Positions 50,684 through 63,703 of a DNA stretch of 64,000 nt are shown here, piece after piece. The position numbers and the translations under genes are program-made. The notes beneath the pieces were generated by a model that saw only the letters and a program-made list of their open reading frames with translations, did not search any database and had not been told where the DNA came from. The stretch is from a virus (Duplodnaviria > Heunggongvirae > Uroviricota > Caudoviricetes): the IMG/VR virus record IMGVR_UViG_3300045988_003641, positions 25,067 to 89,066 of that record. The stretch is one strand, 5' to 3'. Position 1 is the first letter of the stretch. Each line of letters opens with the position of its first letter.

Positions 50684-51169
50684 ATGAATTACATGGAGAT
50701 TCGACCATTTGATACAGCTAATGGTGAAGGGGTTCGTGTAAGCCTCTTCGTAGCTGGTTGTAAGCATCACTGCGAAGGCTGCTTTAACAGGGAGTCTTGG
50801 AAGTTTAATGCTGGTAAAGAGTTTACTTATGCAAACCTTTATGGCATTCTAAGACTTTTGGAAGATGACTCTTTAAGTGGGCTGTCTATCCTCGGTGGAG
50901 AACCATTGGATGACCGTAACATTGGAGAAGTCACTAAGATTTGTCAGAAGGTTAAATCAATCTATCCAGAGAAATCTATCTGGCTCTGGACAGGTTTTCA
51001 GTTACATGAAAAAATTCACCTTGATGTGATGAAATATGTTGACGTGGTGATTGATGGTAAGTATGATTCATCTAAACCAACAGTTAAACCATATCGTGGT
51101 TCTAATAACCAAAACCTCTGGAGAAAAGAGTATGGGTGGCAAGGTGATTGTCAGTGGAGAGCAGAGTGA
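50684..51169 (+). CDS. nrdG: anaerobic RNR activating enzyme (radical SAM)
   Basis: 161 aa; CKHHCEGC = CxxxCxxC radical-SAM cluster motif; downstream of nrdD. Confidence 0.7.
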   Translation: MNYMEIRPFDTANGEGVRVSLFVAGCKHHCEGCFNRESWKFNAGKEFTYANLYGILRLLEDDSLSGLSILGGEPLDDRNIGEVTKICQKVKSIYPEKSIWLWTGFQLHEKIHLDVMKYVDVVIDGKYDSSKPTVKPYRGSNNQNLWRKEYGWQGDCQWRAE

Positions 51170-51249
51170 TTATTCTGGCAAATGGACTAAGGTATAACTC
51201 CAATTGGTATCACTGAAGAAGAACTTCATAAGTTCTGTATTAAACTTTA

Positions 51250-51534
51250 ATGAGAGAGAGACTAAAAATGGGAATTTTAGGTAATATGAAAGCTGGATTC
51301 TTGAAGGCACTGGAAAAAGCAGCAGCAATTGTTTCTATGACTGGAAAGCAGGTCGGTGTAGATGCTTCAGTGGTTGCACAGGTTCTTGCAAGCCAAATTG
51401 AACAGCAGCCTTACATCTACGTAGGCCGTGGTAAAGGTGGTAAGAAACAAGCCCACCGTCCGTCTGGTGCAGCAGCTATTAAACGAGCAGCTAAGAAAGC
51501 TCGTAACCGTAAACGTAATAAGAAGGCTAAATAA
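51250..51534 (+). CDS. hypothetical basic protein
   Basis: 94 aa; very basic C-terminus KRAAKKARNRKRNKKAK. Confidence 0.3.
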   Translation: MRERLKMGILGNMKAGFLKALEKAAAIVSMTGKQVGVDASVVAQVLASQIEQQPYIYVGRGKGGKKQAHRPSGAAAIKRAAKKARNRKRNKKAK

Positions 51535-51857: not shown

Positions 51858-51908
51858 ACAGATACTATAAGGGGACTGTAAAGGTTCCCTTTTTATTTTG
51901 GAGATGAT

Positions 51909-52424
51909 ATGTATCTGTCAAACCTAAAACGTTCTGCTGCAATGTCAGTGCTAAGACTCAGCTTTGAGGAACGTCAAGAGTTCATTGACTCCCACCAATA
52001 CGACCCCTCAAACTCCAATCACATGATTCTCTGGAATCGTGAAAGTACTCGTGAAAGAGCACTATTCCGTTATTACCCACACTACACTATAGATAACCTG
52101 TATGAATTGTTTGTTGTGAAGAACACCATTACAGTGCTCAATAAACTTTGCAGATACACAGGTAGCCAATCCTTCACATTAGGTCACCACAAGCCTGTTA
52201 CAAAGGGTGGTGAGCATCACTGTGCAAACTGGTTTATCCAGACTAAGCTTGATAACCAGAAGCAAGGCGACAGTCTTCTAAGCATCCCTAAGATGACCTA
52301 CGAAGAGCAAGAGAAATATATCAAAAATAATATGCCAGATGTGCTTGACAACAACTATACAGATTTGGCAATATCTCTCCTGTTGAAGTTCGAGACAGTT
52401 TATAGGGCAACTTACAATGGCTAA
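51909..52424 (+). CDS. HNH endonuclease-like protein
   Basis: 171 aa; GHHKPVTKGGEHHCANW...N...K resembles HNH motif. Confidence 0.4.
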   Translation: MYLSNLKRSAAMSVLRLSFEERQEFIDSHQYDPSNSNHMILWNRESTRERALFRYYPHYTIDNLYELFVVKNTITVLNKLCRYTGSQSFTLGHHKPVTKGGEHHCANWFIQTKLDNQKQGDSLLSIPKMTYEEQEKYIKNNMPDVLDNNYTDLAISLLLKFETVYRATYNG

Positions 52425-52695
52425 AGAGAAGTGGGAAATTTTACCATTAGTCAGTGAAGGTGGTAATGGTTGTGAAATGTACATGATACGTGGTCATGTT
52501 CCAGAACCAATTGCACTTGAGATGGTAAACAACTTTACAGATGGTTCTTACAAAGACTTAGGAGAGCCAACTATAAAGCATCAATGGGTAAAACCTGTAC
52601 CAGACAGCACAGGTAACTGTAGTGTACTTTACCACGTTGTAGACCCTGTAAAATGCAAATCTGCAATGGCAGTAACAAACGTAACCTTTGATTGA
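52417..52695 (+). CDS. hypothetical protein
   Basis: 92 aa. Confidence 0.3.
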   Translation: MAKEKWEILPLVSEGGNGCEMYMIRGHVPEPIALEMVNNFTDGSYKDLGEPTIKHQWVKPVPDSTGNCSVLYHVVDPVKCKSAMAVTNVTFD

Positions 52696-53588
52696 GAGAC
52701 AAAACTATGAAAACATCTATCCGTGTTACAGTTCATTCACCAACTAAAGGGACTCACGAAGAAGAGTTTAACATCGTCCAATTTCCTTCTGGTGAGATTG
52801 GTGGACATTTTTCACCAGAGTTTGTTGATTTTACTGCTTATGCTGCATCATCCATCAACAACGTGATTATGATTATAAAGGGTTATGACAAAGACACATT
52901 ATTTGCTGTGGCACTTGCTAAAGAGGTAATTGATGATTTAGTACCTCATAAGTTTGCTATGAAGACTGCTATCTTTTACTATTTGCCAAATGCACGTTAC
53001 GACCGTCACATGTTTAAAGGTGATGCAGCAGCTTTGAAAGTGTTTGCACAACAGGTTAATGCAATGGGTTTTGATGCAGTCTGTGCAGTTGACCCTCATA
53101 GTTACGTTCCAGATAACCTTTTCAATTGCTTCCAGAGTATTCCTCAAAAGGAGATTGCAGTCCATTACGCAAATGACCCTCTGATTGATTACTTAGTAGC
53201 CCCAGATGCAGGTGCTTCTAAGAAGATTGCAGAGACTGCTAAAGAGGTGGATAAACCATATATCACAATGTCTAAGGTGCGAAATCTTAAGACTGGAGAA
53301 ATCACTGGTATGCGAATCCTTGACGATGTTGATTTGACCGATAAAACCGTCATGATTCTTGATGATATCTGTGATGGTGGTCGAACCTTCGTAGAGGCAG
53401 CTAAACACCTACGTGAAGCAGGTGCAAAACGTGTAGAGCTTTATGTAACACATGGTATCTTCTCTAAAGATGTTGAAAACCTTCTTGACAATGGTATCGA
53501 CCATATTTACACTACAAACTCTTTAGGCGAAGCTAAAGACCGTGGCTTAACACATTACAGTCAAGTTACTGTAGCAAACCTTGATTGA
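52692..53588 (+). CDS. ribose-phosphate pyrophosphokinase family protein (Prs-like; possibly ADP-ribose pyrophosphokinase)
   Basis: 298 aa; type I PRTase PRPP-binding loop VMILDDICDGGRT; directly upstream of NAMPT-like gene. Confidence 0.6.
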   Translation: MRDKTMKTSIRVTVHSPTKGTHEEEFNIVQFPSGEIGGHFSPEFVDFTAYAASSINNVIMIIKGYDKDTLFAVALAKEVIDDLVPHKFAMKTAIFYYLPNARYDRHMFKGDAAALKVFAQQVNAMGFDAVCAVDPHSYVPDNLFNCFQSIPQKEIAVHYANDPLIDYLVAPDAGASKKIAETAKEVDKPYITMSKVRNLKTGEITGMRILDDVDLTDKTVMILDDICDGGRTFVEAAKHLREAGAKRVELYVTHGIFSKDVENLLDNGIDHIYTTNSLGEAKDRGLTHYSQVTVANLD

Positions 53589-53635
53589 AACTTTATATGG
53601 GCTTGAAAGACCCATTTTGAGAGAGAGATTAAAAG

Positions 53636-55417
53636 ATGACTAAATCACTTTATGCAGTACCAGCAGGTTTAAACGCGGATGCTTACAAGTCTGGCCATGT
53701 TTACCAGTACCCTAGTGCAACAGAATACTTGATGTTCAACCTGACACCACGTAGTGACAAATGGTTTAACAGCCCTTTAGCAATTGACGGTGTAGTGGCT
53801 TTTGGTATTCAACGTTTTGTTAAAGATTACTTGATAGACCACTGGAACGCCACTTTCTTTGAACGTGATAAAAAAGAAGCAATTGACGAAATCTTAGAAG
53901 TCATGAATGGTGTTCTGGGTAAAGATGCTATCGGTCGAGAGCATTGGGAAGCACTTCACGACTTAGGTTATCTACCAGTTGAAGTATACGCGGTAGAAGA
54001 AGGTACAGTTGTCCCTATGCGTGTCCCAATGATTGTCTTCCAGAACACTGTTTCAGGTTTCCATTGGGTAGCAGGTTATCTGGAAGATGCTTTCTCTGCT
54101 GAGATTTGGAAGGCTTGCACTATTGCAACTATTGCATTGCATTACAAACGCATCTGTAAGAAGTGGGCTGACCTTACTTGTGACAACGACTTACATCTGC
54201 CCTATCAGTGCCATGACTTTGCTATGCGTGGTATGTCCGGCTTTACTGATGACGCATTTAACGCTGTAGGTCACTTAACCAGCTTTAAAGGAACCGATAG
54301 CTTCCCTGCTGTATACACGGCTAAACGCATCTATGGACAGTCTTACCCAATCTCTGATATTGGTAGTTCTGTACCAGCCACTGAACACTCTGTAATGTGT
54401 GCAAACATTGCTTGGGAAGGTGGTAATGAATTGATTGAAGAAGAAAGACGCTTTAAAGGTGAGTTACAAACCTTCCGTCGTTTCTTAACAGAAACTTACC
54501 CAACTGGTATTGCAAGTATTGTTTCAGATACTTATAACTTCTGGAGAACTGTGTCAGAAATCTTACCAGCACTCCGTAAAGAAATTATGGAACGTGATGG
54601 TAAACTGGTAATTCGCCCTGACTCTGGAGACCCTGTACATATTGTCACAGGTTATAAAGCAATCCACTTAGAGTGTGCTAAAAAGGCTTATTACGAGCAC
54701 CTAAGCAAGCTTGAAGCCAGCGACACAATGTTGAATGCTGTTCTGAACATGAAGCTTGAAAACATCAACTATGGTATTGCTGGATGGCTACTGTCAGAAG
54801 GCTACGAAATGGTTGTTGACAGAGAAGACTTTGAAGTAGCCGATACAGTGTTGCTGAAAGATGCTTACATCAACGGCTCTGCAAACGTTGTAACACGTCC
54901 TGTAGCGGAGATTGATGGAGCTATTAAGACACTGTACAACATCTTTGGGGGAACTATTAACTCTAAAGGGTTTAAGGTACTGGATGAGCACATTGGCCTT
55001 ATCTATGGCGACTCTATCACGCTGGAACGTGCAAACGAAATCCTGAAGCGTCTGTATGAAATGGGTTTTGCAAGCTCTAACGTAGTGTTTGGTGTAGGCT
55101 CTTACACTTACCAGTACATGACTCGTGACACCTTTGCATTTGCTGTTAAAGCAACTCTTGCAAGCATTGGTGGTAAAGAGATTATGCTTGCAAAAGACCC
55201 TAAAACAGATAGTGGTGTTAAGAAGTCTGCTTTTGGTGGTGTAGTACCTATGTGGAATGGTGATAAGTTGAAAGCTGTAGATGGCTATGGATTCCAGAGC
55301 TTTGCAGATGTACTTGAACATCCAGCTTGTGCTCTACGTTTAGTCTTTAGTGACTCTGAGCAGTATGGTTACACATCTCTTGGTGATATTCGAAATAATA
55401 TTGACAAGCAGCTTTAA
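53636..55417 (+). CDS. nicotinamide phosphoribosyltransferase family protein (NAMPT-like)
   Basis: 593 aa; GTDSFPA and PATEHS motifs resemble NAMPT signatures. Confidence 0.65.
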   Translation: MTKSLYAVPAGLNADAYKSGHVYQYPSATEYLMFNLTPRSDKWFNSPLAIDGVVAFGIQRFVKDYLIDHWNATFFERDKKEAIDEILEVMNGVLGKDAIGREHWEALHDLGYLPVEVYAVEEGTVVPMRVPMIVFQNTVSGFHWVAGYLEDAFSAEIWKACTIATIALHYKRICKKWADLTCDNDLHLPYQCHDFAMRGMSGFTDDAFNAVGHLTSFKGTDSFPAVYTAKRIYGQSYPISDIGSSVPATEHSVMCANIAWEGGNELIEEERRFKGELQTFRRFLTETYPTGIASIVSDTYNFWRTVSEILPALRKEIMERDGKLVIRPDSGDPVHIVTGYKAIHLECAKKAYYEHLSKLEASDTMLNAVLNMKLENINYGIAGWLLSEGYEMVVDREDFEVADTVLLKDAYINGSANVVTRPVAEIDGAIKTLYNIFGGTINSKGFKVLDEHIGLIYGDSITLERANEILKRLYEMGFASSNVVFGVGSYTYQYMTRDTFAFAVKATLASIGGKEIMLAKDPKTDSGVKKSAFGGVVPMWNGDKLKAVDGYGFQSFADVLEHPACALRLVFSDSEQYGYTSLGDIRNNIDKQL

Positions 55418-55432
55418 AAGTATATGATAAAA

Positions 55433-55453
55433 GGCTCCCGTAGGAGCCTTTTT
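55433..55453 (+). terminator. rho-independent terminator
   Basis: GGCTCC-CGTA-GGAGCC then TTTTT. Confidence 0.6.
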
Positions 55454-55470
55454 AATTTCTGGAGAAGACT

Positions 55471-55992: not shown

Positions 55993-58359
55993 ATGCGCAT
56001 GGTAAATGACCACGCAGAAGTGATTAAGAGTTCAACTTCTTTAGAGACGTCTCAAGCACAGATTACAATGACACCTGAGATGTTCAGCCTTTTGAGTTCT
56101 GGTGTATATACCTTTAAAGAAAGGGCAGTGATTCGTGAACTGTCATGTAACGCAGTAGATGCTCAGAAAGAAGCTGGAAAAGAGAACATCCCATTCCATG
56201 TGCATTTACCTACTCGTTTTGAGCCTTACTTCGAAGTTCGTGATTTTGGAACTGGATTGACTCATGATAAAGTTATGAGTTTGTACCTAAACTATGGAGC
56301 TTCTACGAAGAATGACTCTAATGACTACATTGGTGCAATGGGTATCGGCTCAAAGTCACCATTTGCAATTGCTCAGTCATTCACAGTATCTAGTTATGTT
56401 GACGGTGTTGTTAATAAGTACTCTGTTTATCTTGAGAATGGTATCCCTCAAGTAACTAAGCTGACAACTAACCAAACAAAAGAACCTAATGGTTTAGCTG
56501 TACGTGTGGCAGTTGCTGACCACCGTATCTCAAAGTTCTTTGAAGAAGCTGGGAATGTGTACTCATACTTCACTGTAAAACCAGAAAGTAATATTGAGTA
56601 CGACGATGTATTAGCAGATATGAACGTAATTGCCCGTGAAGAAGGTGTTTATGATGCCATGATTCATAAGCACAGCTGGCGTTCTAGTGATAACAGGACA
56701 GAGTTTAATGTGGTGATGGGTAACATTGCCTATCCAGTGAACATGGAAGCGTTACTTGGTGATGATTTCTTCAAAGTCTTGCCAGAGTTTTTCCGTAGGA
56801 GCGTAGACCTTGTAAACATCTACATGCCTATTGGTTCAGTTGCTATTGCAGCTTCTCGTGAAGCATTGCAGATGAATGACACGACAAAAAATGTTATCAT
56901 TGAGGCTACTAAAAAGATAACTGAAGCAATTACAAAGGATGTTATCAAGAAAGTTAATAGCCAACCTACACTCATGGATGCTGCACAGGCTTATGCTGAG
57001 TTACGTTTGAACTCACGAGAGATGTTTAATGCTGTGTGTCCAAAGCTAGAGTGGGGTGGCGTTAAGCTTGATTCTCTGGAAGAAGAATTGCTAAACATTC
57101 GTCGTGGAATTATCTACGCAGAAGACGGCTCAGTCATTTATGAACGTGATGGTAAAGGCAATATTAAGGTTGATAGGAACGGGAACAATATACCTAAAGT
57201 AGATTATCTTTATGACCCAGTTGCTTATGTCAAGTTCAACTCTTTAGAGAGTAAGATTCGTGCAACATCGCTTTCCTACACTCAAGAGGCAAGTATGTTC
57301 AATATCTTTGGTGCAATGCGTAAAAGCCAAATTGAACAGTTTTTGTTCGTGATTAATGACCGTCGCAATAAAAATGGTACTGAGAAGACTGTAGGCCGCA
57401 ATCAGATTCTGCGTGGTGCATGTCGAGACTACGCCAGTGAGTCAAGTCTGTTTCACAGATACAATGGTATTGTGTTTGTATTCTCGACTGAAAAAGAGTT
57501 AGACGACCTAATCAATCTACACAAACTTGATAAAAGCTTGTTAAAGATTGTGAAAATGTCTGATAAGGAGCACCATTACCAGCGCAAAGAAGCTGTAAGG
57601 GGTGTTGTAAAACTCTGGAAAGCTGTTCCAGCAGAAGGTGTAGCTTCCTATAAAGAGGTTTCAGAGGACTTAGACACAATTGAAGAACCTCAGCTTTACA
57701 TTAAGGCAATTGGTGACACAGTTGATGGTGAATGTTTTTGCTCATCCCCAGAAGATGTAGCTAAGTCAGTTGCTAATGTTATTGGAAAGACAGTCTATGT
57801 TTTCCGAAAAGCAAATTGGAAAAAGATACCAGAAGACTGGATTGAAGTAGATGAGAAGCTCTTGAACGACAGCTTAACTGATGTTCATTGGATTAATCAT
57901 AACAGGTATACGACACGCATCTACATGAATGGTGTTCTTGACCTTACAAGTAGCTGGATTATTGCCAGAAACTTTACGTTCAATAACAGGAAGATTTCTC
58001 GTGGCTATTGCTATTCACGGGATACAAACAAAACTATCTTCCTAGAAGGTAATGAAGAGGCTGTAGAGGCAATGTTTGGTAAAATCCAGTATGTTGCTGC
58101 ACCATTTGCATACACTTACACTATTAGTGTGTTGAAAACTTTGAAAGATTGTCTTGACAACGATACAAAGCTTTACAAGAAAATTAAGAAAGCTGGTGAC
58201 CGTATGGTTATTAAGGTGACAAACTACCTTTCAAAAAGAAAACAAGAAAACTTCTTGCTTTCTCATTTAGATTGGAATAAAGTGTCACCCATCGAAGTGA
58301 GTAAGTTCTTAGGTTTTGATGTGAAGTGTGTTCCAGAAGGAACTACAGTTTACGATTAA
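55993..58359 (+). CDS. rIIA: rIIA-like protein
   Basis: 788 aa; N-terminal GHKL ATPase-like motifs (RELSCNAVDA, RDFGTGL, GAMGIGSKSPF) closely resemble T4 RIIA N-terminus. Confidence 0.8.
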   Translation: MRMVNDHAEVIKSSTSLETSQAQITMTPEMFSLLSSGVYTFKERAVIRELSCNAVDAQKEAGKENIPFHVHLPTRFEPYFEVRDFGTGLTHDKVMSLYLNYGASTKNDSNDYIGAMGIGSKSPFAIAQSFTVSSYVDGVVNKYSVYLENGIPQVTKLTTNQTKEPNGLAVRVAVADHRISKFFEEAGNVYSYFTVKPESNIEYDDVLADMNVIAREEGVYDAMIHKHSWRSSDNRTEFNVVMGNIAYPVNMEALLGDDFFKVLPEFFRRSVDLVNIYMPIGSVAIAASREALQMNDTTKNVIIEATKKITEAITKDVIKKVNSQPTLMDAAQAYAELRLNSREMFNAVCPKLEWGGVKLDSLEEELLNIRRGIIYAEDGSVIYERDGKGNIKVDRNGNNIPKVDYLYDPVAYVKFNSLESKIRATSLSYTQEASMFNIFGAMRKSQIEQFLFVINDRRNKNGTEKTVGRNQILRGACRDYASESSLFHRYNGIVFVFSTEKELDDLINLHKLDKSLLKIVKMSDKEHHYQRKEAVRGVVKLWKAVPAEGVASYKEVSEDLDTIEEPQLYIKAIGDTVDGECFCSSPEDVAKSVANVIGKTVYVFRKANWKKIPEDWIEVDEKLLNDSLTDVHWINHNRYTTRIYMNGVLDLTSSWIIARNFTFNNRKISRGYCYSRDTNKTIFLEGNEEAVEAMFGKIQYVAAPFAYTYTISVLKTLKDCLDNDTKLYKKIKKAGDRMVIKVTNYLSKRKQENFLLSHLDWNKVSPIEVSKFLGFDVKCVPEGTTVYD

Positions 58360-58438: not shown

Positions 58439-59548
58439 ATGACTACTAAAACTAAAGCACAGATTGACGCAGAAATTTACAAACTGGTTAAAGAAGGTAA
58501 GCTGACTAAAACAGCTATTGCACAGAAATTTAATACTTCAACCCGTTCAGTCGGTCGTGCTGTAGAGCGTCATGAAGCAACATTAAAAGGGAATAAGAAG
58601 GTAACTTCTACACCAGCTACGAAGACTTTGAAGCAAGTTGCTAAGACCTTTAAAAAGAAAGCTGACAAACCAGTTGAAAAGGTTGTTAAAGATTCTGTAC
58701 AGAAAGCTCCAGTAAATAAACTGCACGAAGCTATGCAGAAAGATGACAAGATTGAGTACATGATTACTGGCGACTCTGTAATTATGACTTACGGTTCAGA
58801 ATCTGAAATTGTTGAGTCTACTCATCCGAACTATCAAGAGATTGTAGTTCATGTTGTGAAAGGTGAGTTCAAGAAAGCCTTTGAACTGATGAACATTCGT
58901 AAGTCTATCGAAAACTTCACGCAGGGAGCTATCACAATCAAAGGTGATAAGCTATTCTACGGTGCTGTTGAGATGCGTTCTACTCTGGTTGACCGTATCC
59001 TTCACATGATGAAGACTGGTGATAAAGGTTTTGAACGACTTGTAATGTTCTTCGAAAAACTGATGGAAAACCCATCTAAAGATTCTGTAGAACAACTTTG
59101 GGGATTCATATCTCACCTTGATGTTGAAATTGATGAAGAAGGCTACATCATTGGTTGGAAGAAAGTCTCTACTCGTGAAGGCAAGCTGGTTGACTCCCGC
59201 ACCTGCAAAGTACCTAATGATTTGGGTAACATTGTAGAAATGCCACGTTGGATGGTTGATAATAACCGTAACGTGACTTGCTCTCAAGGTCTTCACGTTG
59301 GTGCTTGGGATTATGTTCGTTACTTCTCAGGTGATACAATTCTGAAGGTTCGTGTCCATCCACGAGACGTTGTATCCGTACCAACTGATTACAACGATAT
59401 GAAGATGCGCTCGTCTCGTTATGAAGTTGCAGCAATCGTTGATAATCAACGTAAAGTACTGAAAGCATGGGATGGCAAGACTGAAGCTTTGCATGTCATC
59501 GTTGGCACTGCTGGTGAACTTATCTCTGAGCGTAAACGTGAAATCTAA
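58439..59548 (+). CDS. rIIB: rIIB-like protein
   Basis: 369 aa; C-terminal KVRVHPRDVVSVPTDYNDMKMRSSRYEV strongly resembles T4 RIIB; adjacent to rIIA. Confidence 0.8.
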   Translation: MTTKTKAQIDAEIYKLVKEGKLTKTAIAQKFNTSTRSVGRAVERHEATLKGNKKVTSTPATKTLKQVAKTFKKKADKPVEKVVKDSVQKAPVNKLHEAMQKDDKIEYMITGDSVIMTYGSESEIVESTHPNYQEIVVHVVKGEFKKAFELMNIRKSIENFTQGAITIKGDKLFYGAVEMRSTLVDRILHMMKTGDKGFERLVMFFEKLMENPSKDSVEQLWGFISHLDVEIDEEGYIIGWKKVSTREGKLVDSRTCKVPNDLGNIVEMPRWMVDNNRNVTCSQGLHVGAWDYVRYFSGDTILKVRVHPRDVVSVPTDYNDMKMRSSRYEVAAIVDNQRKVLKAWDGKTEALHVIVGTAGELISERKREI

Positions 59549-62917: not shown

Positions 62918-63703
62918 ATGGGTATTGTAAAAATCATCAATGGTGATATCTTTGCTGCATTTGATAAAGGTAAGTTTGACATCATTGGTCATGGTTGTAA
63001 CTGCATGAACCTAATGGGCGCAGGTATCGCTGACAAGATTTCTAAACTTTACCCAAAAGCATATGAGACCGATACAGAAGTTTATCTCTATGCAGGTGGT
63101 ATAGGTCACAAACCCTGTGAGAATTTACTAGGTAATTTCTCTGTAGCACGCTTAAAACAAGGTCGTATAGCTAACCTTTACACTCAGCTTAAGACTGGTA
63201 AAGATGCCCGATACAGTGCTTTAGAGTCATCTTTGAAGCAACTTAACAGATACTGTGAAGTTAATCAGTTGAAGAAAGTTGGTTTACCTATGATTGGTGC
63301 AGGTATCGGTGGACTTGACCCTCAAGCCGTCACAGTTATCATCAATCAGGTGATGAAGAGTGTAGATGTTTATCTATATGTCTATGAAGGAGAGATGTAC
63401 CACAAGTTACTCTCAGGTTGGAAGAACTACTGTGAACCAGAATACTTTGCAGGTGTAGCAGTGTTCACAGATAACGCAGTTACCCTCTTCAGACGAAGAA
63501 AAGGTAAGATACATCAAAGTAACCCTCCGGTTGAAAAGATGTCTCTAAGTAACGCTCTAGTTACCCACCTGTCAAAGAGCAATCACAGAATTGCTGTAAC
63601 ATTTGGTAGTGATGCAGAAGCTTATATCTATGCAAGAACTGATGAGGATATTGAGGCAATCTTCTCTTCACCAGAAGTTACCTTCTTAGACGCAAAGAAC
63701 TAA
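62918..63703 (+). CDS. macro-domain protein (ADP-ribose binding/processing), putative
   Basis: 261 aa; N-terminal INGDIFAA...DIIGHGCNCMNLMGAGIA resembles macro-domain ADP-ribose pocket; C-terminal ~110 aa of unknown function. Confidence 0.5.
   Translation: MGIVKIINGDIFAAFDKGKFDIIGHGCNCMNLMGAGIADKISKLYPKAYETDTEVYLYAGGIGHKPCENLLGNFSVARLKQGRIANLYTQLKTGKDARYSALESSLKQLNRYCEVNQLKKVGLPMIGAGIGGLDPQAVTVIINQVMKSVDVYLYVYEGEMYHKLLSGWKNYCEPEYFAGVAVFTDNAVTLFRRRKGKIHQSNPPVEKMSLSNALVTHLSKSNHRIAVTFGSDAEAYIYARTDEDIEAIFSSPEVTFLDAKN

Follow-up and report, generated by a model that had tools for sequence, protein, structure and literature searches.

The best described relatives of the locus reported here are the NARP1 operons, composed of an adps and a namat gene, which were discovered through genes 79-80 of Bas63 (Escherichia phage JohannRWettstein; bas63_0079, bas63_0080). 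In the proposed mechanism, host defences of the SIR2, TIR or SEFIR type would split NAD+ into ADP-ribose and nicotinamide; Adps, a diverged relative of PRPP synthetase, would form ADPR-PP by using ATP to place a pyrophosphate onto ADP-ribose at position 1'', and Namat, which is related to Nampt and has a clamp that binds adenine, would then replace the pyrophosphate by nicotinamide, yielding NAD+ directly and without host NMN salvage. Work on the orthologues from Bas63 and the homologues from SpbetaL1 has established both the chemistry and the anti-defence phenotype. Bas63 lacking genes 79-80 is sensitive to SIR2-HerA, and ADPR-PP (m/z 720.010) was seen only when wild-type Bas63 met the defence system. 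Rescue was independent of host pncC and nadR, as SIR2-HerA was also overcome in a host lacking both of these genes (Osterman et al., bioRxiv 10.1101/2024.02.11.579819). In an independent screen by a second laboratory, single deletion of either Bas63 gene led to a 1e4 to 1e6-fold drop in plating. In vitro pyrophosphorylation of ADP-ribose, as opposed to ribose-5-phosphate, is known for the Adps of the Bacillus phage SpbetaL1 alone, because the Bas63 Adps failed to purify. The SpbetaL1 Namat has been crystallized (9W5W, 9W5X), and Namat enzymes keep PRPP-dependent NMN synthesis in vitro (PMC12774641), so that some classical salvage activity may remain.

The window, by which we mean the whole 64,000-nt stretch of DNA analysed, belongs to a Felixounavirus. 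The original prediction had pointed to adjacent Prs-like and NAMPT-like genes at 52692-55417 and had proposed that they reconstitute NAD+ to counter NAD+-depleting immunity. Both genes are present on the + strand as described, a Prs-family gene being followed after 47 nt by a Nampt-family gene, and their matches to Pfam, NCBIfam and PHROG families go far beyond chance. The first open frame does extend over 52692..53588, but 52692 is an upstream TTG overlapping the stop codon of the preceding ORF, and adps almost certainly starts with the ATG at 52707, since this codon is preceded by GAGAGA and all annotated orthologues are 293 aa long and begin with MKT. The two genes and the elements of the first that bear on its function are as follows:

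52707..53588, + strand: adps, ADP-ribose pyrophosphokinase (Prs-family), 293 aa, assigned by orthology to Bas63_0079 and by an Adps profile
53274-53276, + strand: catalytic Lys190 of Adps, aligned with K162 of SpbetaL1 (K197 of B. subtilis Prs)
53349-53387, + strand: PRTase loop of Adps, VMILDDICDGGRT, residues 215-227
53636..55417, + strand: namat, nicotinamide ADP-ribose transferase (Nampt-family), 593 aa, assigned by orthology to Bas63_0080

Sequence comparison confirms the pair at 52707-55417 as the syntenic orthologue of Bas63 genes 79-80, with 79% and 98% protein identity, respectively. The window matches Bas63 in genus, in genomic position and in its neighbours (gp77/gp78 upstream, rIIA downstream), and the gene order around the pair is that of Bas63_0077 to Bas63_0084, with the difference that bas63_0081, just downstream of Namat in Bas63, is missing from the window. 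In the published Adps clade, 97% have a Namat homologue within 10 genes; here it follows on the same strand after 47 nt. The pairing of Adps and Namat is kept in 260 phage records, 230 of which cover at least 80% of the pair length. Based on these data, we consider it about 90% probable that the pair constitutes the NARP1 operon with which a Felix O1-like phage counters host defence. The proposal of NAD+ reconstitution thus gains support from positional orthology, from the adenine clamp of Namat and from the grouping of the first protein with Adps, but the finding is already known: it is a rediscovery, as the system and the phage genus are those of the original NARP1 discovery. Orthology, synteny and conservation of catalytic and selectivity residues are shown for the window pair at the level of sequence, and by analogy we infer that its proteins, notably the different N-terminal allele of Adps discussed below, would act like their Bas63 and SpbetaL1 homologues.

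The first protein carries the fold and domains of the Prs (PRTase) family, with Pfam matches to Pribosyltran (E 5e-11) and Pribosyl_synth (E 3e-10), PF00156 and PF14572 exceeding the gathering score, and further matches to TIGR01251 (E 3e-36, 125 bits against a cutoff of 113) and phrog_619 (E 2e-97); the PRTase loop quoted in the original prediction is present. It falls short of every NCBIfam Prs equivalog cutoff by a wide margin, the best scores being 105 against 296 for NF002095 and 93.5 against 297 for NF002320. A profile comparison against Adps and canonical Prs, proposed together with the prediction, was run with an Adps profile built only from the SpbetaL1, FADO, Gary and Quinn proteins, all of them from outside the Ounavirinae. 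The window protein scored 152.8 bits and Bas63 159.0, vs. 84.1 for E. coli Prs, and it retained 41 of 42 Adps-invariant columns vs. 24 of 42 in E. coli Prs. In pairwise comparison it is closer, though not dramatically so, to SpbetaL1 Adps (100 bits, 34% identity) than to E. coli Prs (66 bits). Among solved structures there is no Adps, and the best structural match is an archaeal Prs. Judged by these scores, the window Adps appears to side with the validated phage Adps rather than with canonical Prs, and the question whether the enzyme makes PRPP or ADPR-PP, which the original prediction had left undecided, is answered in favour of a predicted ADPR-PP synthesis as far as computation can answer it.

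The second protein matches Pfam NAPRTase (E 6e-35) and NAMPT_N, NF006629 (E 2e-140) and phrog_448 (E 5e-202), and among solved structures it comes closest to 9w5w and 9w5x, those of SpbetaL1 Namat (E 4e-128). It is identical to Bas63_0080 at 581 of 593 positions (98%), does not differ from it in length and shares both of its insertions. The elements relevant to substrate choice are:

55097-55129, + strand: Namat selectivity helix GSYTYQYMTRD, residues 488-498, a published Namat signature
residues 42-43: Namat selectivity loop K42-W43, identical to Bas63
residues 258-274 and 351-427: insertions relative to SpbetaL1 Namat

With nicotinamide and ribose-phosphate contacts, the catalytic His and the equivalent of Arg306 as the criterion, the Nampt-like catalytic core is present (D15, Y17, F195, R198, D221, A248, H251, R327, D329, G458 and D459, with His251 as the catalytic His). 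All 20 nicotinamide/NAD+ contact residues, taken from the SpbetaL1 Namat crystals, are identical to Bas63; compared with SpbetaL1 itself, 16 are identical and four are conservative changes, including a K-W loop variant. That variant, of the Lys-then-next-residue kind, has been described for Bas63 (PMC12774641), and loop K42-W43 is the predicted adenine-stacking clamp element of the window Namat. The selectivity helix fits GS-X-phi-X-phi-X-phi-TRD and has its aromatics, Y490 and Y494, at motif positions 3 and 7, and Met occupies its third small-residue position in place of the usual Asn or Val, as it also does in Bas63. The helix of Xanthomonas Nampt reads GGALLQKVDRD, and the phage-type structure 9ke8 has Q and R where Namat has Y490 and Y494. 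The adenine clamp, read from GSYTYQYMTRD, distinguishes Namat from true Nampt, and it is retained in the window protein. SpbetaL1 further shares with the window the order Adps to Namat, the catalytic Lys of Adps and a GSxTYQYxTRD helix, but identity is only 34% for Adps and about 43% for Namat, the selectivity loop of SpbetaL1 has R40 in place of K42-W43, and the window proteins have additional segments, namely two insertions in Namat (77 aa and about 15 aa) and 21 extra N-terminal residues in Adps.

The pair lies among the following elements of a likely transcription unit:

51869..51891, + strand: upstream terminator-like hairpin (-11.9 kcal/mol), with a terminator annotated at the equivalent site in Moogle
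51909-52424, + strand: orthologue of Bas63 gp77, 171 aa, 97% identical to Bas63_0077
52417-52695, + strand: orthologue of Bas63 gp78, 92 aa, 98% identical to Bas63_0078
53589..53635, + strand: spacer of 47 nt containing a weak hairpin (-8.4 kcal/mol, z -2.4) and, after it, UUUU
55429..55452, + strand: intrinsic-terminator-like hairpin closing the unit, with a 10-bp stem, a 4-nt loop and a T-run (-14.7 kcal/mol, z -3.0)

The upstream hairpin probably marks the edge of a unit gp77-gp78-adps-namat, in which the gp77 and gp78 orthologues are probably co-transcribed with the pair; both are context only and lie outside NARP1 chemistry, gp77 having been reported to counter the Ec67 retron. A promoter scan was uninformative (21 sites vs. 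13.6 +/- 3.8 expected), and an Rfam scan of the whole window returned zero matches. In the position of the spacer, Felix O1, Si3 and Moogle have an HNH homing-endonuclease gene annotated between adps and namat.

The window Adps aligns with Bas63_0079 over equal length and without gaps (231 of 293 residues identical, 79%), and the differences are unevenly spread: of 62 differing positions, 57 fall within residues 1-180, while residues 181-240 are 100% identical. The N-terminal part of the gene holds a mosaic patch:

52690..53230, + strand: mosaic patch covering roughly the first 175 codons of adps, where the N-terminal domain is encoded by a second, anciently diverged allele, recognized by a drop in identity and by dS

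Within the patch, nucleotide identity to Bas63 drops to 60-80%, as compared with about 95% in the flanks, and codons 1-175, which in the window belong to another allele class than in Bas63, are 68% identical in amino acids and 69% in nucleotides; dS is 1.96 (saturated) vs. 0.14-0.19 in the flanks. The first 175 codons represent an allele of ancient divergence that recombination has swapped in. When allele classes were compared across six Ounavirinae, the window-type allele was found in the window and Si3, and the Bas63-type allele in Bas63 and Felix O1; all catalytic motifs are common to both. The published table of NARP1 Prs/Adps homologues already lists the window-type allele (phages Si3, mio, wV8 and VpaE1), flags the wV8 Adps row as Namat-associated and lists the Namats of Si3, mio and heid as Adps-associated; the one allele tested genetically is the Bas63 type. 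Positive selection as the cause of the divergence was rejected, as the patch dN/dS of 0.12, with saturated dS, indicates purifying rather than diversifying selection. Co-conversion by the homing endonuclease is likewise unsupported as the origin of the patch, as its site and the patch lie at opposite ends of adps (3' and 5', respectively), and as the endonuclease is uncoupled from the allele, being absent from the window and present in Si3 for one allele, and absent from Bas63 and present in Felix O1 for the other. As a weaker companion idea, we speculate that two ancient alleles of the Adps N-domain may be maintained in the genus by some host counter-measure.

Much of the available annotation would fit classical auxiliary salvage, in which a true PRPP synthetase and a true Nampt (NadV) deliver NMN that the host converts to NAD+ via NadR/PncC, aiding replication generally: Prs and NadV are the names given by Pfam, NCBIfam, PHROG and every GenBank annotation, the operon adjoins a nucleotide-metabolism module (nrdA, nrdB, nrdD and nrdG), and Namat is still able to form NMN from PRPP in vitro. 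We nevertheless consider this very unlikely, given that Bas63 beat SIR2-HerA in a host without pncC and nadR while ADPR-PP was detected in vivo, that the SpbetaL1 homologue did not accept ribose-5-phosphate, and that the window Adps lies below all Prs equivalog cutoffs (93.5 vs. 297 bits) and groups with Adps, next to a Namat with the adenine clamp that true Nampts lack. The pair also shares its two protein superfamilies with NARP2 and classical salvage as represented by KVP40 (NadV and NatV) and by bacterial Prs and Nampt, and its second enzyme and KVP40 NadV are in one superfamily, as a NARP2-type pathway would have it, in which Nampt uses PRPP to form NMN and NAD+ is finished by an NMN adenylyltransferase (NMNAT) of the phage. 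Set against this, the flanking ORFs include neither an NMNAT nor a Nudix gene, and the annotation of the collinear Bas63 genome lists neither of the two; the first enzyme is of the Prs type, as it is in NARP1, and the helix has Y490 and Y494, Namat aromatics that are absent from Nampts and replaced by Q and R in 9ke8; a NARP2-type pathway is therefore hardly credible here.

A different alternative leaves the chemistry of NARP1 in place and gives it a wider role, with the NAD+/adenine-nucleotide pool being buffered against several stresses beyond the SIR2/TIR NADases alone and the distinct N-terminal allele of Adps tuning regulation or escape from a host factor. Bas63 g79 and g80 also counter, more weakly, the Ec86 retron, g79 (and, on weaker evidence, g80) counters the hhe system, again more weakly, and a single genus retains two deeply divergent N-terminal alleles that recombine. 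These observations contend with the purifying dN/dS of the patch (0.12), with the presence of all catalytic motifs in both alleles and with the fact that no host factor targeting Adps is known, and we regard the wider role as highly improbable; it is in any case an addition to the NARP1 operon as the main explanation and does not replace it.

The NARP1 operon can be extended in other phages. In NARP1-AP of Vibrio phage Gary, a Macro phosphatase, Adpp, is encoded together with Adps and Namat (bioRxiv 10.64898/2026.01.28.702374), and RyDEP-extended NARP1 has an RyR-domain glycosidase in the locus. The ORFs flanking adps-namat gave no match to the RyR-domain (RyDEP) glycosidase, and the six flanking ORFs include no Macro Adpp gene next to the pair. 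Compared with Gary, the window Adps is 41% and Namat 38% identical, the Gary Namat helix GSFTYQYVTRD shows the same motif, and both genomes encode a homologous Macro protein, inside the operon in Gary and outside it in the window:

62918..63703, + strand: Macro-domain protein, 261 aa, unlinked (Pfam Macro 32.4 bits, cutoff 22)

This gene lies 7.5 kb and 13 genes downstream of the pair. Its product matches phrog_335 (E 5e-113), a PHROG common to the operon-embedded Quinn protein, is 27% identical to Gary Adpp (E 6e-13), has an additional C-terminal domain of about 100 aa and carries an N-terminal motif, H-x-CNC...G-x-GIA, that within the PDB matches yeast Poa1p only. The same Macro family is also found in records of T-even phages, which to our knowledge do not carry NARP1. 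We surmise that the protein is a candidate ADPR-1''-phosphatase of the Adpp/Poa1p type, and its link to NARP1 is speculative. In a dispersed NARP1-AP run by Felix O1-like phages, which we consider doubtful, the unlinked Macro protein would dephosphorylate ADPR-1''-phosphate, the product of the aRES-type NADase, thereby feeding Adps. No phenotype was reported for the Macro gene of Bas63, g95, in the PhageMaP screen. The published criterion for NARP1-AP is a Macro-domain Adpp within two genes on either side of the pair, so the Macro gene at 62918-63703 would have been missed. If the dispersed arrangement were true, far more NARP1 phages would resist aRES than the published 15%, a figure that would be too low because only Macro genes within two genes of the operon were counted.

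The practical value of these data is in annotation, as about 260 GenBank phage records, relatives of the window among them, still name the two products ribose-phosphate pyrophosphokinase and nicotinamide phosphoribosyltransferase, labels that imply the wrong chemistry for the pair. Phage-therapy candidates of the Felix O1 group are predicted to be resistant to NAD+ depletion of the SIR2, TIR and SEFIR types. If confirmed, the Adpp-like Macro gene outside the operon and the two Adps alleles with their recombination would add modestly to the picture of the arms race over NAD+.

The original prediction placed a PRPP-synthetase-family gene directly upstream of a NAMPT-family gene at 52692-55417, and two consecutive plus-strand ORFs with the corresponding profile matches do lie there, but the first start codon had to be moved. 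The first ORF as listed opened at a TTG (52692) overlapping the stop codon of the upstream ORF; since all annotated adps orthologues are 293 aa long with an MKT N-terminus, we assign the gene to 52707-53588, where the ATG is preceded by a Shine-Dalgarno-like GAGAGA stretch.

52707-53588, plus strand: adps, 293 aa, ATG start
53589-53635, plus strand: adps-namat spacer, 47 nt, with a weak hairpin
53636-55417, plus strand: namat, 593 aa, 47 nt past the end of the first ORF

The first ORF matches Pribosyltran, Pribosyl_synth, TIGR01251 and phrog_619, with the PRTase loop VMILDDICDGGRT at residues 215-227, and the second matches NAPRTase, NAMPT_N, NF006629 and phrog_448; judged by these profiles, the family assignment of both is unambiguous. 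One PHROG, phrog_12872 (547 positions), is matched by both proteins. The NARP1 preprint lists, in its Supplementary Table 1, FJ373894_00125 of Shigella phage Ag3, an entry that reads as an Adps sequence followed directly by a Namat sequence; this suggests fused genes, or else a frameshift or annotation artefact, in some phages.

By megablast, the closest matches to the region are Felix O1-like myoviruses of Escherichia, Salmonella, Shigella and Citrobacter (260 records, 230 with at least 80% query coverage, top identity 96%). The gene order is that of Bas63 (Escherichia phage JohannRWettstein, MZ501086), running from structural genes through a minus-strand replication block, nrdA/B/D/G and the pair to rIIA/B and the lysis genes. 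The replication module, in Bas63 extending from thymidylate synthase to DNA polymerase, coincides with negative GC skew at ~22-34 kb, a reversal that we attribute to its position on the minus strand. Rfam at gathering threshold gave zero matches over 1-64000, and the Bas63 tRNA cluster lies past 81 kb, outside the range of the window. The Felixounavirus operon is also found at 92-93% nucleotide identity in GU169904.1 (Staphylococcus phage SA1) and MG065668.1 (Campylobacter phage A126), which are probably contaminated or misattributed records and not true host jumps.

Comparison with Bas63 bears out the proposal that the pair reconstitutes NAD+ in the manner of NARP1. In Bas63, bas63_0079 (Adps) and bas63_0080 (Namat) occupy the same position and are flanked by the same neighbours; window Namat is identical to bas63_0080 at 581 of 593 residues, window Adps to bas63_0079 at 231 of 293 without gaps, and the gp77 and gp78 orthologues are 97% and 98% identical. 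Two small indels near the operon, each at a gene boundary, consist of ~350 bases found only in Bas63 just past the Namat terminator (gene bas63_0081; missing in the window at ~55440-55470) and ~157 near bas63_0074 (missing at ~51160-51250). NARP1 was first found in this Felixounavirus, where loss of genes 79-80 renders the phage sensitive to SIR2-HerA and the NAD+ level is no longer kept up, host pncC and nadR are dispensable for rescue, and ADPR-pyrophosphate (ADPR-PP) with its cyclic-phosphate breakdown product appears only in defence-carrying cells infected with wild-type Bas63 (Osterman et al., bioRxiv 10.1101/2024.02.11.579819). Because Bas63 Adps purified poorly, the in-vitro chemistry was done on the SpbetaL1 homologues, with Adps converting ADP-ribose and ATP to ADPR-PP and Namat converting ADPR-PP and nicotinamide to NAD+ (Osterman et al.). 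The literature describes Adps as a phage-specific clade with a Namat neighbour in 97% of members, counts NARP1 in 859 of ~20,000 phage genomes, and reports that NARP1 neutralises SIR2-HerA, SEFIR, DSR1, DSR2 and Thoeris of type I; type II Thoeris is not neutralised. In an independent knockout screen of Bas63, either single deletion reduced plating 1e4 to 1e6-fold on Sir2-HerA cells, with weaker effects against the Ec86 retron and hhe systems.

Whether the first enzyme makes PRPP or ADPR-PP had been left undecided. Window Adps passes the broad TIGR01251 subfamily model alone, falling far below every Prs equivalog cutoff, and carries the catalytic lysine at K190 (SpbetaL1 K162). Since pairwise scores alone were indecisive (Gary Adps 120 bits, SpbetaL1 Adps 100, FADO Adps 78, E. 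coli Prs 66), we built a profile from the SpbetaL1, FADO, Gary and Quinn Adps only, leaving out all Ounavirinae. Against this profile the window protein scored 152.8 bits, Bas63 159.0 and Felix O1 159.3 vs. 84.1 for E. coli Prs, and of the 42 columns in which five supported Adps proteins do not vary, 41 are retained in the window protein and 24 in E. coli Prs. In Supplementary Table 1, proteins starting MKTSIRVTVHSPTKGTHEEEF, i.e. the window allele, are present (Si3, mio, VpaE1 and wV8), clustered apart from Bas63, with phage heid as cluster representative for Si3, mio and VpaE1, and with wV8 flagged for a Namat within 10 genes (Osterman et al.); the window pair, allele included, was thus already catalogued as NARP1. 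By orthology and not by assay, we predict with high confidence that the product is ADPR-PP.

The second enzyme was compared in the same manner. The nearest solved relatives of window Namat are those of SpbetaL1 (9w5w, 9w5x; E 4e-128), with Xanthomonas Nampt (9e-52) and mammalian Nampt (~1e-40) far behind. SpbetaL1 Namat has been solved with nicotinamide and with NAD+, revealing an adenine "selectivity clamp", made of a variable loop and a helix of signature GS-X-phi-X-phi-X-phi-TRD, that tells Namat from Nampt and is required for anti-defence activity (PMC12774641). The window helix, GSYTYQYMTRD, compares with GSFTYQYNTRD in SpbetaL1 Namat and GSFTYQYVTRD in Gary Namat, vs. GGALLQKVDRD in Xanthomonas Nampt and GAQTYQRNTRD in the phage-type structure 9ke8. 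When 20 published ligand-contact residues were mapped, all 20 were as in Bas63 and 16 as in SpbetaL1, the other four being conservative (R40 to K42, S190 to A196, A362 to S460, F392 to Y490), and K42-W43 is the loop variant given for Bas63 (PMC12774641). None of the 12 differences between window and Bas63 Namat falls at a ligand-contact or helix residue; six are within a lineage-specific insertion, the larger of the two that set window Namat apart from the crystallised SpbetaL1 protein:

54407-54457, plus strand: small Namat insertion, residues 258-274
54686-54916, plus strand: large Namat insertion, residues 351-427

Both are common to Bas63 and Felix O1, with a diverged form in Mooglevirus, and the larger sits between the ribose-binding RPDSGDP strand and the GDS AMP-phosphate loop; the word "insertion" is absent from the text of the structural paper (PMC12774641).

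Nucleotide identity to Bas63, ~95% in the flanks, drops to 60-80% over 52690-53230 (the first ~175 adps codons) and then recovers, the left edge of this sharply bounded patch being the start of adps. The dS is 1.96 in the patch vs. 0.14-0.19 in gp77, gp78 and Namat, with a patch dN/dS of 0.12, which suggests that recombination brought in an old allele kept by purifying selection, and speaks against fast adaptive change. Within residues 1-175, the allele of the window and Si3 shares 67-73% identity both with that of Bas63 and Felix O1 and with that of Mooglevirus, and identity between the latter two is 76-79%. Felix O1 is a recombinant, its Adps changing from the Bas63 type to the window type at a breakpoint near residue 153; Felixounavirus thus harbours two deeply diverged alleles of the N-domain, which recombine with each other. 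The window type is the commoner in the phage database (~155 records reach at least 90% identity, vs. 93 at 60-80%). The catalytic motifs are all common to both alleles; the genetic tests used the Bas63 type, and the small uncertainty that remains would lie mainly in the window-type N-domain. A second, smaller divergent patch (50800-50980, 71-79% identity to Bas63) falls within an nrdG-like radical-SAM activase gene (50684-51169).

The surroundings of the pair comprise the following features:

51869-51891, 5' of gp77: second hairpin, with an annotated terminator at the same place in phage Moogle
51909-52424, plus strand: gp77 orthologue, 97% to Bas63 gp77
55429-55452, 3' of namat: strong terminator-like hairpin, -14.7 kcal/mol, z -3.0
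55993-58359, plus strand: rIIA homologue, phrog_612
58439-59548, plus strand: rIIB counterpart, by position

Because the two hairpins bracket gp77 to namat, gp77-gp78-adps-namat likely form one transcription unit; a promoter scan was uninformative. The ORFs immediately flanking the pair contain no Macro or RyR domain, so the operon consists of just two genes, its minimal form. A gene for a 163-aa HNH homing endonuclease separates adps from namat in Felix O1, Moogle and Si3 (relatives' loci L006:1215-1706, L007:3391-3882, L009:3391-3882), while the spacer is without it in the window, Bas63 and Sf15, independently of the Adps allele type. Bas63 gp77, called GIY-YIG, is reported in a knockout screen to counter the Ec67 retron; its window orthologue has no significant Pfam match, only a weak HNH-endonuclease PHROG match (E 4e-4) and the pattern HH...GG...N...N. 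Bas63 g84 and g85, orthologous to the window rIIA/rIIB, are reported QatABCD counters. With gp77, NARP1 and rIIA/rIIB, this 8-kb stretch is a counter-defence gene cluster.

A further gene may bear on NARP1 from a distance:

62918-63703, plus strand: Macro-domain gene, 261 aa, counterpart of bas63_0095 ("putative phosphatase" in Bas63), 97% identical

Its Macro domain is N-terminal (Pfam 32.4 bits, cutoff 22; phrog_335). The aRES defence converts NAD+ to ADPR-1''-phosphate, unusable by Adps, and a Poa1p-like Macro phosphatase, Adpp, present in 15% of NARP1 operons and characterised in the NARP1-AP of Vibrio phage Gary, restores the Adps substrate (bioRxiv 10.64898/2026.01.28.702374). That survey covered two genes either side of each NARP1 operon; unlike in Gary, the window gene lies 13 genes from the pair, hence outside this range, and its product carries an additional C-terminal domain (~100 aa). 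The protein belongs to the same PHROG as Gary Adpp and is 27% identical to it (E 6e-13) across the whole Macro domain, keeping the motifs H-x-CNC...MG-x-GIA and LP-x-IG-x-G, and yeast Poa1p is the sole match to its N-terminal motif among solved structures. Quinn gp175, 90% identical to Gary Adpp and encoded within an operon of NARP1-AP type, shares the PHROG, the secondary matches and the solved relatives of the window protein. Its distance from the pair and its additional domain argue against a connection to NARP1, as do its best full-length solved relatives, the OARD1/TARG1 deacylases, and the spread of the family over ~2,850 phage records, including those of T-even phages. T-even phages are not known to carry NARP1. 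Likewise, no phenotype was reported for Bas63 g95 in the PhageMaP screen. It is conceivable that the protein instead processes by-products of RNA repair, as a Tpt1-like fold was noted for gp107 in the Bas63 knockout study and a polynucleotide kinase is annotated nearby in Bas63. We regard the putative connection of the Macro gene to NARP1 as a lead and not a finding.

NARP1 is a known system, first found in the genus to which the window phage belongs; the remaining value of this analysis lies in correcting database annotation and in two side observations, the Adps patch and the Macro gene.
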